Part shown: piece by piece, positions 1 through 8,059 of the stretch
Numbering within the stretch: the stretch's first letter is position 1
How the letters are laid out: each line of letters opens with the position of its first letter
NCBI GenBank assembly: GCA_017444895.1
Contig: JAFSVR010000005.1
Coordinates: forward strand, 1,546-65,545
Direction: 5' to 3'
Length of the DNA: 64,000 bases
Source of the DNA: Clostridia bacterium
Lineage (GTDB): Bacteria > Bacillota > Clostridia > Christensenellales > UBA1242
Made by a program: the position numbers and the translations under genes
Notes under the pieces: generated by a model
The model's input: only the letters and a program-made list of their open reading frames with translations
The model's database searches: none
Told to the model about the DNA's origin: nothing

Positions 1-1817
1 ACTATGTTCCTTTTATGGCGGTTGCAATAAAATCAATCACGGAAAATTATAACAAAGATTATAGATACAAAATTCATGTGCTCAACACGGGGATATCAAA
101 AGACAACAGAAAAAAACTGCTTGATCTTGAAACTGAAGACATGCGCATTGAATTTAATGATGTTTCTGAAAGAATAAACGCAATTAAGCAGTTGCTTGAT
201 GATAATTTGCGCGACTATTATAGCGATGCAATATATTATAGGCTTTTCATCCCAACAATGTTCGCTGAATACAAAAAAGCAATCTATATTGATTGTGATG
301 TTGTTTTGGTTGACGACATTTCGAAGATGTTTAATATTGATTTGAAAGACAATCTTTTAGGTTCTGTGCTTGACGAAGTTGCGCCAGCATTCCCAGAATT
401 TATTGATTATGTTGAAAATGCGGTTGGTGTTCCATTAAACCAGTATTTTTGCAGTGGGGTATTGTTAATGAACCTTGCTGGCTTGCGCGAGTTTAAGATT
501 GAAGAAAAATTTATTGGATTGCTTTCAAAATATAACTTTGGAACAATTGCGCCAGACCAAGACTACCTTAACGTTATGTGCAAAAACAAGGTTTTATATT
601 TGCATCCGGGTTGGGATAAGCAGTCTAATGATGTGCCATATGATGATGACTTATATTTGATACACTACAATATGTTCAGAAAGCCTTGGCGATTTAAGAA
701 TGTTCCTTATGAAGAATATTTCTGGAAATATGCCGAAATGACAACAGATTTTTATGATGACGTTTTGGAAATACAATCTGAATATACAGATGAAAAGAGA
801 GAGGCGGATATTGCTGGTGCTGGGCGAATGATTGAGATGGTTAAAAACATTATGAATAGCCCAGTAACATTTAAGTCTGTTCTTGGACATAAGAGCATTG
901 ATGCTGCGCTTAAAGAAACGAAGGCAAGTAAAAAAGAAAAGAGGCGCGCTGAAAAAAGAGCATCAAAAGAACAACAAAGGCAAGAGAGAATTAAGGCAAG
1001 GCAAGACGTTCTTGCAAAGATTGCTCTCTATGAGAAGGCAGGGAAGTTTAATGAAGATGTTGAAAACGACCCACCAGCAAAAGAACTATTGCCTGAAAAT
1101 GTTGACTATTTGCATAAAAAACTTTCAAGCAAGATTAAAGAAAAAATTGCTTTCAGTTTGGCACATAAGGTGGTGCGTAAACTTGAAAAAATGAATATGT
1201 TTGTTATTAAAGACTATGTTGGTCTTGAGAATTTGGCAAAATTAAAAACTGGCGCTGTTTTAACATGTAATCATTTCAACCCTTTTGATAGTTTTGCTAT
1301 TCAGCTCACATATGAAAAAACAAAAACAAAACGCAAATTATATAGGGTAATAAAAGAAGGCAACTATACAAGTGTTGATGGCTTCTATGGGCTTTTAATG
1401 CGCAACTGTAATACTTTGCCACTGAGCTCTAACAGAAAAACAATGAAAGAGTTTTTGAGCGCAGTTAGAATTATTCTGGCTCGTGGAGATTTGGTTTTGG
1501 TTTATCCAGAACAGAGCATGTGGTATAATTACCGTAAGCCTCGCCCTAGGAAAGAGGGGGCGTTCAATCTTGCAGTAAAGAACAATGTTCCAATTCTTCC
1601 AATGTTTATCACAATGGAAGACACTGATCAGCTTGATGATGAGAATTTGCCAGTTCAGGCATACACAATCCATATTGGCCAACCTATTTATTCAGACAAT
1701 GATCTTTCAAGCAAAGAGAATATTGAAATGATGAGGAAAAAAGAATATGCGTTTTGTGTTCAAACATATGAGCAGGCTTATGGTAAAAAACTTGTTTATG
1801 ACACTGAGGAGAAATAG
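1..1817 (+). CDS. Glycosyltransferase family 8 domain fused to a C-terminal PlsC-type (lysophospholipid) acyltransferase domain. The 5' end is cut by the window edge.
   Basis: The frame stays open to nt 3 (YVPF precedes the first Met at 15). The N-terminal half has GT8-like AVAIKSI, DCDVVLVDD (DxD) and LIHYNMFRKPW motifs. A K/E/R-rich linker follows (KKEKRRAEKRASKEQQRQERIKARQ). The C-terminal half has NHFNPFD (HX4D) and VYPEQS acyltransferase blocks. Confidence 0.75.
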   Translation, partial: YVPFMAVAIKSITENYNKDYRYKIHVLNTGISKDNRKKLLDLETEDMRIEFNDVSERINAIKQLLDDNLRDYYSDAIYYRLFIPTMFAEYKKAIYIDCDVVLVDDISKMFNIDLKDNLLGSVLDEVAPAFPEFIDYVENAVGVPLNQYFCSGVLLMNLAGLREFKIEEKFIGLLSKYNFGTIAPDQDYLNVMCKNKVLYLHPGWDKQSNDVPYDDDLYLIHYNMFRKPWRFKNVPYEEYFWKYAEMTTDFYDDVLEIQSEYTDEKREADIAGAGRMIEMVKNIMNSPVTFKSVLGHKSIDAALKETKASKKEKRRAEKRASKEQQRQERIKARQDVLAKIALYEKAGKFNEDVENDPPAKELLPENVDYLHKKLSSKIKEKIAFSLAHKVVRKLEKMNMFVIKDYVGLENLAKLKTGAVLTCNHFNPFDSFAIQLTYEKTKTKRKLYRVIKEGNYTSVDGFYGLLMRNCNTLPLSSNRKTMKEFLSAVRIILARGDLVLVYPEQSMWYNYRKPRPRKEGAFNLAVKNNVPILPMFITMEDTDQLDDENLPVQAYTIHIGQPIYSDNDLSSKENIEMMRKKEYAFCVQTYEQAYGKKLVYDTEEK

Positions 1818-1819
1818 CC

Positions 1820-2410
1820 GTGGTTCTTTATCTATCTATCATATTTATTGGAATGGTTATTGTTTCGTTGCTTAATATTTTTCTTGCACTAGACTATCTC
1901 CAAACAAACGCCGGAATTGTTGTTTTGGTTGTTTTGGCAGGTGTTGCATTCGTTTTCTTGATTGATGGGCTTTGTGCAATTGTTGTGCATAATTTGCCAG
2001 ACAAGTGGTTTGGGAAAGACAGAAAAATTTCTTACGTTAGTGGCCTAGAAAAGAGAATGCATAGATTTTTTCAAGTTAAAAAATGGAAAGACTATGTTTG
2101 GGAAATAGGTGCACTTGGCGGGTTTAGCAAAAAATCGCTAGAAAACCCAAAAGACAAGGAATATGTTGAAAGATTCATTATTGAAAACAACAAGGGAGTT
2201 ATTGTTCACGATTGTGGAATGATTTTTGGTTTTCTTGTTATGATCATCTTGCCTCTTAAATTTGCTTTAACAATTTCGCTTCCAATTGCGCTTGTTAACG
2301 TTCTTCTTAACACGATGAGCAATATGGTGCTTAGATATAACACACCTAAACTTATGACGTTATATAAATCGCTTGCGAGAAAAGAAAGCAGGCAGAATCA
2401 AGATGCATAA
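1820..2410 (+). CDS. Small polytopic membrane protein; CrtO-like (glycosyl-4,4'-diaponeurosporenoate acyltransferase family) candidate
   Basis: GTG start lies 3 nt after the upstream TAG, with GAGGAG 8 nt upstream (translational coupling). TM helices sit at both ends. The pattern LPDKWF..VKKWKD..ENNKGVIVHD..VLRYNTPKL parallels S. aureus CrtO (IPDKYF..VRKWKHK..RAELIHW..VQRYNRPRL) as I recall it. Confidence 0.55.
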   Translation: MVLYLSIIFIGMVIVSLLNIFLALDYLQTNAGIVVLVVLAGVAFVFLIDGLCAIVVHNLPDKWFGKDRKISYVSGLEKRMHRFFQVKKWKDYVWEIGALGGFSKKSLENPKDKEYVERFIIENNKGVIVHDCGMIFGFLVMIILPLKFALTISLPIALVNVLLNTMSNMVLRYNTPKLMTLYKSLARKESRQNQDA

Positions 2411-4364: not shown

Positions 4365-6167
4365 ATGCCAGGGCCAATGAAAGGTGGGCCTATGGGCAAT
4401 AGGCTTGGAAAGAAAGAGAAACTGGATTTTAAGGCACTTATGAAAGTGTATGCTTTTTGCAAGCCATATTCTTTTGGGATTGTGGTTAGCATTTTATGTG
4501 CTATTGTTGGGGCAATAACAACAATAATAGGGCCAGATAAGATTGCACATTTGATGGATATAATAACTGGCGGAATTTTCACCGGCATTGATATGGGTGC
4601 GTTTGTTGAGACGGGAATGTTTCTTATTTGCCTTTATGTTGTTGGAAGTGTTTTTGCTTATGCGCAACAATATATAATGGCAATTATAACGCAAAAGGCT
4701 TCAAAACGCTTGCGCACAGAAATTGACAAGAAGATCAACCGTCTTCCGCTTTCCTTTTTTGATAGCACAACGCGAGGGGATGTTCTTTCAAGGGTTACCA
4801 ATGATGTTGATGTTATTTCTCAAACGCTTGGATCTGCACTTGCAAACCTAATAAGTTCAGTTGTTTTGTTCTTTGGATTAATAATCAAGATGTTTCTTTC
4901 AAATTGGCTTCTCGCAATTGTAACAATCGTTTCTTCATTTTTGGGATTTGGTTTTATGGCGCTTATTTTATCAAAGTCACAAAAATACTTTAACAAAAAA
5001 CAGGAGTATGTTGGCGAGATTAATGGGCAGGTCGAAGAAGTGTACACAAACTATAAGGTTGTAAAATCTTATGGCGCTGTTCAAAAGGAAAAGAACTCAT
5101 TTGACCAAAAAAATGACCGCATTTGCACGGTTGATTGGAAATCTCAGTTTTTGTCTGGAATGATGATGCCAATTATGGTTTTTGTTGGAAATCTTAGTTA
5201 TGTTCTCATTTTTGTTGTTGGAGTTTCCATAATTTTGGGTGGCGGTTCAGCCGTAACAATTGGAACGCTTATTTCGTTTGTTATCTATGCAAAACTATTC
5301 TCACAGCCACTTTCAACTTTTGCTCAAAGCATGACGTCTTTCCAACAATCCTCTGCGGTCTCAAAACGTGTTTTTGAAATTTTGGAAGCAAAAGAGATGG
5401 AAGATGAAACAAACAAAAACATTAAGCTGGAAAATGTTAAAGGTCATGTTGAATTCAAAAACATTGTGTTTGGATATGACGAAAACAAAACAATCATCAA
5501 AGATTTTTCTGCCGATTTGAAGCCTGGGCAAAAGGTTGCAATTGTTGGACCAACCGGAGCGGGGAAAACCACAATTGTTAATTTGCTTATGCGCTTCTAC
5601 GATGTTGATAGTGGGGATATTCTCATTGATGGTGTTTCAACAAAAGATATGAAAAGGGAAGATGTTCGCTCATTATTTGATATGATTTTGCAAGACACCT
5701 GGCTGTTTGGCGGAACGCTTAGAGAGAACCTGGTATATAACAAACAAAATGTTTCAAACGAGGAGCTTGATGCGGTTTGCGAGGCCGTTGGGCTAGGGCA
5801 TTTTGTTAAGACATTGCCAAACGGCTATGACACGGTTTTAGAGGAAAATTCAGCACTTTCAGAAGGGCAAAAACAGCAACTTACTATTGCGCGTGCAATG
5901 ATAAAAAACAGCCCGCTTTTGATCTTAGACGAGGCAACCAGCAATGTTGACACGCGCACCGAACTGATTATACAAAATGCAATGGATGAACTAACAAAAG
6001 GGCGAACAAGTTTTGTTATTGCACACCGTCTTTCAACAATTAAGAATGCTGATTTGATTTTGGTTATGCGGGATGGTGAAATTGTTGAAAGTGGAACGCA
6101 TAGCGCACTGCTTGCTAAAAATGGTTTTTATGCTGAGTTATATAACAGTCAGTTCAATTTAGTGTAA
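4365..6167 (+). CDS. ABC exporter half-transporter (TMD-NBD); consensus-site subunit
   Basis: ATG 4365 lies one nt after the upstream TAA, with GGAGGA at 4351-4356. The ORF-track extension 4206-4364 overlaps the upstream gene. Walker A GPTGAGKTT, Walker B LLILDEAT and H-loop IAHR are canonical. The signature deviates (LSEGQ). Confidence 0.9.
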   Translation: MPGPMKGGPMGNRLGKKEKLDFKALMKVYAFCKPYSFGIVVSILCAIVGAITTIIGPDKIAHLMDIITGGIFTGIDMGAFVETGMFLICLYVVGSVFAYAQQYIMAIITQKASKRLRTEIDKKINRLPLSFFDSTTRGDVLSRVTNDVDVISQTLGSALANLISSVVLFFGLIIKMFLSNWLLAIVTIVSSFLGFGFMALILSKSQKYFNKKQEYVGEINGQVEEVYTNYKVVKSYGAVQKEKNSFDQKNDRICTVDWKSQFLSGMMMPIMVFVGNLSYVLIFVVGVSIILGGGSAVTIGTLISFVIYAKLFSQPLSTFAQSMTSFQQSSAVSKRVFEILEAKEMEDETNKNIKLENVKGHVEFKNIVFGYDENKTIIKDFSADLKPGQKVAIVGPTGAGKTTIVNLLMRFYDVDSGDILIDGVSTKDMKREDVRSLFDMILQDTWLFGGTLRENLVYNKQNVSNEELDAVCEAVGLGHFVKTLPNGYDTVLEENSALSEGQKQQLTIARAMIKNSPLLILDEATSNVDTRTELIIQNAMDELTKGRTSFVIAHRLSTIKNADLILVMRDGEIVESGTHSALLAKNGFYAELYNSQFNLV

Positions 6168-6169
6168 TA

Positions 6170-6205
6170 AAAAAGATAAGCGATGGATGCTTATCTTTCT
6201 TTTTC
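6170..6205. terminator. Bidirectional terminator between convergent genes
   Basis: AGATAAGC (6174-6181) pairs with GCTTATCT (6189-6196). An A-run lies on the left and a T-rich run on the right. It overlaps the stop of the minus-strand ORF. Confidence 0.65.
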
Positions 6206-6613
6206 TTCTTCACTGCAATTTGTAAGCGGTTCATATTTTATTAGCCATTCAGGCTTAAATTTGTTTGCGTCAATGGCAAATTCAATACGCGTTTCCATTT
6301 GGAAATCATAACCGCGATTTTTTAATGCGTCATTTGAATAATAGTATCCTTTTCCAACGCTGGAAATAAGGTCTATTATGGGGACTGAAAAGGTGCAAAC
6401 ATAATAGTCGTCAAGGTTTCGTTGGTTGCATTTGAGAATATATTTTATATTTTCGGAAGCCTTTTTATTGAGGAAAAAATGTATGTATTTTGTTTCCCGT
6501 TTGTATTTATGTGTGTTTGACCTTGTTTCTAAGAAAAAGTTGCCAAGCGTGTTGGTTTTTTTGCCTAAAATATCGTCCAATTCCTTGTAATAAACAACCC
6601 TATAAATTTTCAT
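6191..6613 (-). CDS. Hypothetical protein (140 aa from ATG 6613); no motif recognised
   Basis: Intact ORF. ATG 6613 sits 6 nt downstream of a TATAAT box, and the track's start at 6619 is a TTG. There is no SD, signal peptide or TM helix. Confidence 0.5.
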   Translation of the reverse strand: MKIYRVVYYKELDDILGKKTNTLGNFFLETRSNTHKYKRETKYIHFFLNKKASENIKYILKCNQRNLDDYYVCTFSVPIIDLISSVGKGYYYSNDALKNRGYDFQMETRIEFAIDANKFKPEWLIKYEPLTNCSEEEKER

Positions 6614-6619
6614 ATACAA

Positions 6620-6648
6620 ATTATATCACTAGTTTTTTTCAATTTCAA
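6620..6648 (-). promoter_or_regulatory. Sigma-A-type promoter TTGAAA-17-TATAAT, 6 nt upstream of ATG 6613 (leaderless candidate)
   Basis: On the minus strand the -35 TTGAAA is at 6648-6643 and the -10 TATAAT at 6625-6620. TTGTAT and then the ATG follow. Confidence 0.55.
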
Positions 6649-6754
6649 TAGGCATTAAAAATTTATTGAAAAAAGTTCTTAAAAAGCATCTAAGTTAAGT
6701 ATGTTTATTAGTTCGGGTAAAATAAAAATGGCGTTCCCATCAGGGCGACTGCGT

Positions 6755-6782
6755 AAAAAAAACAACCTGAATGGTTGTTTTT
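6755..6782 (-). terminator. Terminator-like A/T-flanked hairpin inside repeat body 1
   Basis: A-run, CAACC (6763-6767), loop TGAAT, GGTTG (6773-6777), T-run. The structure is symmetric, so it could act on either strand. Confidence 0.45.
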
Positions 6783-6900
6783 AGCACAAAGCGGGGAGAA
6801 AACTTGCAAAAATTTTCGGTCTGACCGACAGGGCGAACCCGAGTCTGCTTACATTAGTTCGGGTAAAATAAAAATGGCGTTCCCATCAGGGCGACTGCGT

Positions 6901-6926
6901 AAAAAACAACCTGAATGGTTGTTTTT
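6901..6926 (-). terminator. Terminator-like hairpin inside repeat body 2; the first one encountered downstream of tRNA-Arg
   Basis: A6, CAACC (6907-6911), TGAAT, GGTTG (6917-6921), T5. Confidence 0.45.
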
Positions 6927-7018
6927 AGCACAAAGCGGGGAGAAAACTTGCAAAAGTTTTCGGTCTGACCGACAGGGCGAACCCGAGTCTGCTTACATTA
7001 GTTCGGGTAAAATAAAAA

Positions 7019-7093
7019 TGGCGTTCCCATCAGGATTCGAACCCGAACTAATGGTTCCGAAGACCATTGTGCTATCCATTACACCATGAGAAC
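7019..7093 (-). tRNA. tRNA-Arg (anticodon UCG), with CCA encoded
   Basis: A 75-nt cloverleaf folded by hand. Acceptor GTTCTCA/TGGGAAC, D-stem GTGT/GCAC, anticodon arm ATGGT-CTTCGGA-ACCAT, T-arm TCGGG-TTCGAAT-CCTGA, discriminator G, then CCA. Confidence 0.9.
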
Positions 7094-7127
7094 AATTATG
7101 TGAGAGGTATTATTCGCTTGCGAAAAC

Positions 7128-7156
7128 ATTATAACTTTTTATGAATCAAAAATCAA
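7128..7156 (-). promoter_or_regulatory. Promoter TTGATT-17-TATAAT for tRNA-Arg
   Basis: On the minus strand the -35 is at 7156-7151 and the -10 at 7133-7128, about 28 nt upstream of the mature 5' end. Confidence 0.55.
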
Positions 7157-7192
7157 TAATATTGATAAAGTTTTCTTTTAAGTGCCAAATCT

Positions 7193-7222
7193 TTGACAAT
7201 GATTATTGCCTAATGCTAGAAT
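7193..7222 (+). promoter_or_regulatory. Promoter TTGACA-18-TAGAAT (TGn-extended) for the YhhN-family gene
   Basis: TTGACA at 7193-7198 and TGCTAGAAT ending at 7222. GGGTGGAGGG (SD) precedes ATG 7243. Confidence 0.55.
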
Positions 7223-7242
7223 GAGGGTGGAGGGAATAGGTT

Positions 7243-7944
7243 ATGAACACAATGGTTTATGTTATGCTTGCAATCGCAGTTGTGATGGCAACGGTTTTTG
7301 TTGTTTTAAGCAAAGGTCAAAGGGGATTGCTTTCGCTTTCACTTAAAAGCATTGCAAGTTTTTGCTTTACGGTTTTGGCTTTAACAATTTGCTATTATAA
7401 GGGGCTTGGCAGGTTTGGGTTGTTCATTTCCATTGGCTTGGTTGCAAGCTGTTTCGGAGATGTGATCCTTGGGTTGCCAGATATGCCAGAAATGAAGAAA
7501 AAGGCAACTGTCTTAACCCTGATTGGTGGGCTGGCTTTTGCGCTTGCTCATGTTTTCTATCTTAGTGCAATGATAATGAGATTTGGATTTGAGTGGTGGG
7601 TTATCTTGGTTGCAATTGCCCTTGGGTTTGTGTTCTTCTTTGGCAACAAGTTCATTGGCAAACTTAACTATGGTAAGCTTGGCGCAGGGATGCCTGTTTA
7701 TGCAACTTTTGTTTCACTAGTTGTTGCAGAGAGCATAATGGCATTTGTTAGTGGGGCAAACACTTATGGCGCAATTATGATTTTGATTGGCTTTATAATG
7801 TTCTGGATAAGCGATATTGTTTTGATGAATATTTACTTTGGTGGGCACAATGATAAGGCTAACCAAAAACTATATTACTATAACTTGGCTTCATATTATC
7901 TTGGCCAAATTTTAATTGCGTCATCACTAATCTTTTTAATTTAG
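7243..7944 (+). CDS. YhhN-family (lysoplasmalogenase-like) integral membrane protein
   Basis: Eight predicted TM helices. The FGDVILG and FALAHVFY motifs are typical of YhhN/TMEM86 proteins. Confidence 0.7.
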   Translation: MNTMVYVMLAIAVVMATVFVVLSKGQRGLLSLSLKSIASFCFTVLALTICYYKGLGRFGLFISIGLVASCFGDVILGLPDMPEMKKKATVLTLIGGLAFALAHVFYLSAMIMRFGFEWWVILVAIALGFVFFFGNKFIGKLNYGKLGAGMPVYATFVSLVVAESIMAFVSGANTYGAIMILIGFIMFWISDIVLMNIYFGGHNDKANQKLYYYNLASYYLGQILIASSLIFLI

Positions 7945-7950
7945 CTTCTA

Positions 7951-7990
7951 AAAACAAACAACCTCCATCAATTTGATGGAGGTTGTTTTA
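7951..7990. terminator. Bidirectional terminator
   Basis: A long perfect inverted repeat, AAACAACCTCCATC / GATGGAGGTTGTTT, flanked by A- and T-runs and lying between convergent genes. Confidence 0.75.
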
Positions 7991-8059
7991 TGCAAAATTT
8001 TAAGTGTTATGTGTGGTAGAGCTTCCCATTTTTTCTAGCAATAAAAGGTGAGTGCCAAA

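Follow-up and report, generated by a model that had tools for sequence, protein, structure and literature searches.

In Escherichia coli, the tyrT operon is followed by about three repeats of a 178-bp sequence, all of which include the tRNA-Tyr end, and termination in this operon is Rho-dependent. tRNA 3' external transcribed spacers (3'ETS), such as 3'ETS-leuZ of E. coli, are stable functional RNAs that are cut from the trailer and end at the intrinsic terminator of the operon; they are single-copy and contain no reiterated tRNA pieces. Tandem att-flanked remnants and partial-tRNA scars have reportedly been described as well, among cis-mobilizable elements (CIMEs) and their accretion, ssrA islands and Prochlorococcus integrative elements (the 'tycheposons'). 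Here, we analyzed a 64-kb stretch of DNA (contig JAFSVR010000005.1; hereafter the window) from a metagenome-assembled genome (MAG) of an uncultured gut/rumen Clostridia bacterium, in which a tandem array reiterating the tRNA 3' end lies directly behind a tRNA-Arg(UCG) gene. We interpret this array, with a probability of about 0.55, as a tandem 3'-trailer unit of tRNA-Arg(UCG), in which a trailer and terminator module resembling that of tyrT/RtT was amplified by unequal recombination.

The array is real and beyond chance, and it is tied to the tRNA strand as the sequence-only reading of the window had held (Table 1). Behind the intact tRNA gene, on which two independent methods agree, three identical 38-nt heads (CCTGATGGGAACGCCATTTTTATTTTACCCGAACTAAT) each join 16 nt of the tRNA 3' end (the T-stem 3' strand, the acceptor 3' strand, the discriminator base and CCA) to a 22-nt trailer. 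These three sites are the only occurrences of the 16-mer in the 64 kb, whereas shuffled sequences predict 0. The heads are separated by two bodies of 106 nt (6891–6996) and 108 nt (6745–6852), which differ only by one C/U transition (plus strand, G at 6956 and A at 6812) and by a 2-nt indel in a U run (U6 versus U8). All of this anatomy bears out the earlier description of an intact tRNA, three heads and two near-identical bodies. The complete unit of 144–146 nt is composed, in order, of the 16-nt tRNA 3' end, the 22-nt trailer, a 9-nt linker and a module of about 97 nt. In addition, the final 13 nt of each head (ACCCGAACTAATG), overlooked in the sequence-only reading, form a perfect reverse complement of tRNA positions 41–53, so that the trailers contain an inverted tRNA copy of 13 nt at 100% complementarity (repeat pairs I5, I6 and I9). 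In the minimum-free-energy fold, the first of these anti-tRNA segments forms a 13-bp helix with the tRNA body.

The close similarity of the copies bears on the possibility that a short-read assembler made a false tandem from two strain variants of a single head–body–head locus. The contig does come from a short-read MAG, the 144-nt unit is near the read length, and the copies differ at two sites only. We nevertheless regard such an artefact as very unlikely: the variants at the two sites are in phase along the contig, a homologous module that is also duplicated was assembled independently from another sample (see below), and trailer arrays recur both in a further assembly (L076) and in the finished E. 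coli genome.

The module contains two small hairpins (GGG-UUCG-CCC and UCGGU-CAG-ACCGA), an 8-bp hairpin, a terminator-like element made of an A-tract, a hairpin and a U-tract, and the junction sequence ACGCAGUCGC. The three hairpins that had been proposed on the tRNA strand were all recovered by folding. The folding z-scores of the module are –3.2 and –2.3, and those of the hairpins together with the terminator-like fold span –2.3 to –4.3. In the folds, the terminator-like hairpin comprises 10 bp (five A–U pairs and the CAACC/GGUUG stem) followed by U6 or U8. The single transition between the bodies lies in the 8-bp hairpin, where, as previously argued, pairing is kept as G·U on the tRNA strand but becomes an A/C mismatch on the other strand; this carries no statistical weight, because it is a single transition and about half of all stem transitions would do likewise. 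The proposal that part of the body is a decayed T-arm/acceptor copy turned out to be marginal, as the likeness consists of a 9-nt exact match (TCGGGTTCG) that was equalled by 80 of 2000 shuffles (4%); the resemblance of the first module block to a tRNA 3' end is likewise not significant.

A homologous module is found in a distantly related organism. On ENA contig k141_138720 (L075), two units with homology to the body stand behind another tRNA gene, tRNA-Arg(ACG). This contig, together with L076, was found by searching a protein collection with a translated spurious antisense open reading frame (ORF) in one frame. By blastn, the modules of the window and L075 are 81–85% identical (81% over about 100 nt, and 81–82% for module copy 1), with E = 8e-17 for copy 1 and 2e-17 for copy 2. 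At the DNA level, L075 resembles the 64-kb window nowhere else, and their shared proteins are just 31–45% identical. Three identical or near-identical blocks (CGGGTTCGCCCTGTCGGTC[A/G]GACCGAAAA; CTCCC(C)GCTTTGTGCTAAAAAC; TTTTTTACGCAGTCGC) are present in both modules, and the stems of the 8-bp and terminator-like hairpins have been replaced in L075 with pairing kept, about five pairs being changed on both sides. Within the 8-bp hairpin, the inner pairs are swapped with compensation (GAAAAUG/CAUUUUC). The L075 module lies directly 5' of CCCTCCGGTTGCACCA, the 3' end of the local tRNA, which starts at the same T-stem point as in the window; it is preceded by an inverted copy of the local T-arm (14 nt, 93–100%), and its unit is duplicated as well, with a spacing of 166–167 nt. 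Distant Clostridia thus have the module behind no fewer than two different tRNA-Arg genes; each time it is duplicated, and a piece of the local tRNA stands on either side of it, one inverted and one direct. Judged from these comparisons, the body is a conserved module that behaves as a selected element and not as a random or neutral scar, having been retained, with compensated stems, behind a second tRNA-Arg gene in a distant organism. Of the checks that had been suggested earlier, the comparison of stems yielded compensated pairs from a single pair of lineages, and the search for homologs of the unit yielded L075, with no module at 69 related tRNA-Arg(UCG) loci.

This conservation also bears on whether the array is a neutral duplication without function of its own, in which slippage or unequal crossing-over copied the tRNA 3' end with its trailer and terminator in tandem. 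Such an origin would agree with the 98% identity of the two units, with the downstream units being promoterless and behind a putative terminator, and with the plain, array-less trailer of L035, whose tRNA shares the acceptor stem and was the nearest relative found. We consider it improbable, as a neutral duplication would account for the copy number but not for the module, whose body is 81% conserved, with compensated stems, behind another tRNA in an organism with 31–45% identical proteins.

Our comparison with E. coli MG1655 reveals that the layout of the array has a described counterpart. The tyrT locus (L077), which served as a positive control, has a period of 178 nt, 3.1 copies and 95% matches by Tandem Repeats Finder, and four matches to RtT (RF00391) at 133–138 bits, with rttR and tpr annotated; according to PMC3318445, one of the repeats in the tyrT operon encodes rttR. 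In both loci, tandem units stand directly behind a tRNA gene (3.1 copies in E. coli, 2.3 in the window), and each unit carries the 3'-terminal tRNA segment from the T-loop or T-stem through CCA, which is 19 nt of tRNA-Tyr (AATCCTTCCCCCACCACCA) in E. coli and 16 nt in the window. An inverted piece of the tRNA 3' half is likewise present in both trailers. In E. coli it spans 22 nt of the T-arm region (86%), of which a 10-nt part is perfectly complementary to the next partial tRNA copy, and in the window it spans 13 nt (100%). Both types of unit further contain a T-arm-like stretch and GC-rich hairpins, and transcription of the tRNA operon, which ends within the array in E. coli, would do so in the window as well. 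By comparison, the two arrays share no sequence or covariance-model similarity, and the units differ in length (144 nt in the window, 178 nt in E. coli). The window unit holds an intrinsic-terminator-like hairpin, in contrast to the Rho-dependent tyrT, and the window locus, in an uncultured Clostridia bacterium, has neither a tpr-like ORF nor a second full tRNA gene. Consistently, cmscan of window positions 6000–8000 found no match to RF00391 at E <= 10, the gathering score for membership being 45 bits; the window array is not a member of RtT in sequence or structure, and no Rfam family besides tRNA matched the array. The earlier statement that no described family matches was thus wrong in kind, since the E. 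coli tyrT repeats have the same architecture. The most apt description of the array is a trailer repeat of the tyrT/RtT-like type whose core is a conserved module of about 97 nt, a known architecture with an unrelated sequence. This build, a tandem of units that combine a direct partial copy and an inverted piece of the tRNA with a structured module, occurs with unrelated sequence in distant uncultured Firmicutes, which suggests that some process or function recurs at tRNA 3' ends and that the E. coli case is no isolated accident. The finding also provides comparative material for deciding among processing or termination devices, modulators of tRNA folding and footprints of T-loop-specific recombination.

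If the array is an amplified trailer of this kind, the first unit would be transcribed together with the tRNA from the sigma-70-like promoter site at 7128–7156, just upstream of it. The 13-nt anti-segment may pair transiently with the tRNA body in the precursor, and tRNA 3' processing would free a structured trailer RNA of about 120 nt ending at the terminator, the same fate as that of 3'ETS RNAs. In the event of read-through, the 3' end would fall at the next head's CCA, matching the place of the annotated rttR 3' end in E. coli. A consensus scan revealed no promoter-like site inside the array units; since the downstream units stand behind the putative terminator and have no promoter of their own, they would be back-up terminators or by-products at most. 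These extra units could have been made by unequal homologous recombination or replication slippage between the 38–54-nt direct repeats, and the direct and inverted pieces of the local tRNA may first have arisen by recombination at the T-loop, either site-specific or through template switching.

Several observations weigh against this interpretation. The most conserved block, ACGCAGTCGC, sits past the U-tract at the junction with the partial tRNA, a position that suits a DNA recombination site better than an RNA ended by a terminator. The CAACC/GGUUG hairpin was not listed by the simple consensus terminator scan, which passed over it because the U-run pairs with the A-tract. The anti-segment pairs with tRNA positions 41–53 in the window, whereas that of E. 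coli pairs with the next partial tRNA copy; it is not complementary to the partial tRNA copy that follows, and there is therefore no evident rtT-like acceptor helix. Moreover, the module is found in two independent lineages only, so that the covariation amounts to one comparison, and its distribution appears sporadic, as expected of a mobile or recently acquired element: a search with the tRNA D-arm and anticodon-arm core retrieved 69 loci with related tRNA-Arg(UCG) genes, nearly all from MAGs of uncultured Clostridia, Christensenellaceae or 'Candidatus Onthoplasma', and the body and its module are absent from all of them.

These points lead to the alternative of an integration scar or an integrase-less mini-element of the CIME type. 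A tyrosine integrase would have acted at the T-loop of tRNA-Arg on an attP carrying the tRNA 3' end, the body would consist of two attP arms including the terminator of the last gene of the element, and the tandem copies would stem from several rounds of integration or from att repeats that crossed over unequally. As in attL/attR scars, CIMEs and accretion products, direct repeats of the tRNA 3' part with its trailer (38 nt) flank each body; tandem arrangement is possible for such scars, and integrase-less remnants of them exist. The crossover-like junction at the T-loop, found at the same T-loop/T-stem 3' point with the same element-side ACGCAGTCGC in two tRNAs, would fit site-specific recombination, as would inserts of about 0.8–1.1 kb that end in tRNA 3' copies behind the same tRNA in related species, two of which (L032 and L041) hold one clear gene each. 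The sporadic occurrence of the module points in the same direction. However, the inserts in the window measure just 106–108 nt and contain no ORF or genes, and a 146-bp circle is very small for recombination. The shared left boundary and small size in two distant lineages are unexpected of two independent deletion remnants, the conserved blocks with compensated stems are unlike a decaying scar, and the window carries an inverted tRNA piece that att scars do not need.

The machinery expected of an integrating element was likewise not found. In agreement with the sequence-only reading, no integrase or recombinase Pfam family was detected among the window ORFs of at least 150 aa that were scanned, a set that passed over a few such ORFs nested on the opposite strand within longer ones. 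As to the suggestion that the 38-mer might serve as attP on mobile elements, head, body and block patterns gave no real match, and no attP-like match was found, in the collections searched for them, namely viral contigs (IMG/VR), phage records and plasmids. Five 18-mer phage matches were rejected as chance, lying inside high-GC phage coding sequence. Site-specific recombination is hard to square with the lack of an integrase or attP in these searches, with boundaries that are small and identical, and with the inverted pieces, and we regard an integration scar as possible, though not probable. Three further candidates were rejected: a group I/II intron or split tRNA, as the full tRNA follows and the inserts are too small; a serine-integrase att site, as such sites leave no long direct repeats; and an inverton, as inversion between the inverted repeats would destroy the tRNA.

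Table 1. Coordinates of the tRNA-Arg(UCG) gene, its promoter-like site and the elements of the trailer array in the 64-kb window
Feature	Position	Strand	Basis
Promoter-like site of the tRNA-Arg unit: TTGATT, 17-nt spacer, TATAAT (putative role)	7128–7156	–	Consensus scan, 10/12 matches
Intact tRNA-Arg(UCG), encoded CCA end	7019–7093	–	ARAGORN (call tcg); Rfam RF00005, 60.5 bits
tRNA positions 41–53 (CATTAGTTCGGGT), partner of the inverted trailer copies	7041–7053	–	Repeat pairs I5, I6, I9, 100% complementary
Whole tandem array, 2.3 units of 144–146 nt	6707–7034	–	Tandem Repeats Finder: period 144, score 633, 98% matches
Head 1: tRNA 3' 16 nt and 22-nt trailer	6997–7034	–	Repeat search, alignment
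Anti-tRNA segment 1 (ACCCGAACTAATG), begins 10 nt past the tRNA end	6996–7008	–	Repeat pair I6
Module copy 1, 97 nt, CTCGGGTTCGCCCTGTCGGTCAGACCGAAAA to TTTTTTACGCAGTCGC, conserved in L075	6891–6987	–	blastn, alignment, fold
8-bp hairpin GAAAACUU-UUGC-AAGUUUUC, copy 1	6942–6961	–	Folds
Intrinsic-terminator-like hairpin, copy 1: A-tract, CAACC/GGUUG stem, U6	6901–6926	–	Repeat pair I1, folds
Head 2: partial tRNA 3' end and trailer; anti-tRNA segment 2 at 6852–6864	6853–6890	–	Repeat search
Module copy 2, 99 nt; 8-bp hairpin at 6798–6817 with U·G pair at 6812; terminator-like hairpin at 6755–6782, U8	6745–6843	–	Repeats, fold
Head 3, last copy, followed by unrelated sequence; anti-tRNA segment 3 at 6707–6718	6707–6744	–	Repeat search

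Other searches returned no further copy of the array. No match to the array pattern or the tRNA 3' 34-mer was found in JGI metagenome contigs, the tRNA 3' 25-mer is absent from 185,579 representative genomes, and a HMMER search of 1.84 billion representatives gave no match. A chimeric query made from the other five frames of the antisense ORF had no match in the protein collection, and the YhhN protein, the 142-aa ORF (both described below) and P0001 have no exact entry in the contig index. Contigs carrying YhhN homologs at 68–86% identity mostly lack the synteny.

The antisense ORF is a 104-aa reading frame on the plus strand (6775–7089), which runs through both bodies and the tRNA and is internally repeated. 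A coding role was rejected, as the frame is antisense to the tRNA and itself repetitive, and the ORF is spurious. Similar spurious ORFs in public protein sets (P0067–P0071) served as handles to non-coding homologs. For annotation, trailer arrays of this kind would explain both spurious ORFs antisense to tRNA trailers and breaks of MAG contigs inside tRNA genes.

Other arrangements of partial tRNA copies are seen behind related tRNA-Arg genes. On ENA scaffold_28 (184 kb), the minus strand of L076 (4049–4373) carries tRNA-Arg(UCG) followed by 3.0 copies of a 102-nt unit at 93% identity. The unit starts with the terminator hairpin of the tRNA and contains TATGCTGTAATG, an 11/12 match to tRNA positions 6–17, and the array looks like a decayed tandem tRNA copy. 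In two 'Candidatus Onthoplasma' species (L010:6113–6230 and L044:2905–3020, both plus strand), a conserved GC-rich insert of about 92 nt (...ATTCTCACCCGCGGGTGCTCGGGACCCCGCC...GCTCCTTAATGC) stands behind tRNA-Arg(UCG) and is followed by a copy of tRNA positions 55–76; GCTCCT of the insert pairs perfectly with AGGAGC of the copy, giving a minihelix with an NCCA end. The layout is that of the window with a different module.

The longer inserts behind tRNA-Arg(UCG), of about 0.8–1.1 kb, are found in L029 (tRNA at 2054, copy at +908), L032 (copy at +1188) and L041 (copy at +965). They end in a tRNA 3' copy that starts in the anticodon loop or stem (position 32, 41 or 42). L032 encodes a putative membrane protein of 292 aa and L041 a protein of 189 aa, L029 has short ORFs only, and no integrase is present in any of the three inserts, which are classical att-type islets.

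In about 16–18 related species, the tRNA-Arg(UCG) gene is preceded by a 5' leader, in which a promoter is followed by four elements and then the full tRNA (for example L066:1766–1972, plus strand; loci L008, L011, L012, L017, L019, L022, L023, L027, L044, L045, L056, L059, L060, L061, L064, L066, L068 and L069). The first element is a sense copy of tRNA positions 1–41 (1–26 in L045 and L056). The second is a structured insert of about 100 nt ending in CCC(C)-hairpin-GGG(G)-N-CCC(C), the stem of which varies by species with pairing kept in single-sequence folds. The third is a reverse complement, about 14 nt long, of tRNA positions 36–49, spanning the end point of the sense copy, and the fourth is an 18–44-nt spacer leading into the tRNA. 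Nine loci, with five different 7-mers among them, have the same acceptor strand in the copy and in the adjacent tRNA, whereas two (L017 and L069) do not. At tRNA position 45, where the loci differ by A or T, the anti-segment follows the change in 13 of 13 cases. These leaders have no match in Rfam, and the arrangement looks like an undescribed leader RNA or mini-element. In L056, the sub-motif CCCC-hairpin-GGGG-A-CCCC is present in three tandem copies (ACCCCACTGCAACATTCGTTTTGTGGGGACCCCAGAATA...) at about 650–925 on the plus strand, ahead of the tRNA that begins at 927. Other contigs (L015, L034 and L071) hold orphan copies of positions 1–40 of tRNA-Arg(UCG), each followed by ACATATTTTGGGGTTCGATAATCCCCATAAAAAAA, a T-arm-like hairpin without the acceptor 3' strand; L015 belongs to the same MAG as the full leader-plus-tRNA locus L064.

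The tRNA-Arg genes of this clade (Christensenellales/'Candidatus Onthoplasma'-like) might carry a family of small structured modules, each set between a direct and an inverted copy of part of the local tRNA and placed in trailers in the window and L075 and in 5' leaders in the roughly 16–18 species above. In the leaders, the inverted piece spans the exact point at which the direct copy ends, and changes in the adjacent tRNA are mirrored in both pieces. We hold the existence of such a family to be doubtful. If true, it would represent a new class of cis-acting RNAs controlling how the adjacent tRNA folds or matures, or else miniature mobile elements that, upon insertion, copy segments of their target tRNA, and the E. 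coli RtT repeats would be a distant analogue. This wider pattern of direct and inverted tRNA-Arg pieces around modules, including a conserved 5' leader, is a more intriguing lead than the array itself.

The window is ordinary chromosome. The array and tRNA lie between two ABC exporters and a 142-aa ORF on one side and genes for YhhN, mini-RNase III, a SpoU methylase and DnaX on the other, with RecR, Pth, Mfd, pyruvate kinase and other housekeeping genes farther away. The YhhN protein (7243–7944) is 100% identical to that of NCBI locus tag IJS68_00295. In the relatives L003 and L005, the genes for a glycosyltransferase-8, an acyltransferase and CrtO lie beyond YhhN, away from the tRNA, whereas in the window (15–2410) they lie on the array side of the tRNA, with the glycosyltransferase-8 and the acyltransferase fused into one ORF; the tRNA locus is therefore a rearrangement breakpoint. 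A goat-rumen MAG contig with the same tRNA–YhhN neighbourhood (L005/L013; GCA_017443885.1, JAFSXW010000016.1) ends at 7966, which corresponds to tRNA position 40. This is where an assembly-graph fork would be expected if a leader-type 1–41 copy were present, which suggests that such repeats break contigs inside tRNA genes. Downstream of the array, the 142-aa ORF (6191–6648, minus strand) belongs to no Pfam family and is preceded by a near-consensus extended –10 promoter (TTGAAA, 17-nt spacer, TG-TATAAT; 11/12 matches). Its ATG stands only about 7 nt past the –10 element, and its predicted mRNA would therefore be leaderless or nearly so.

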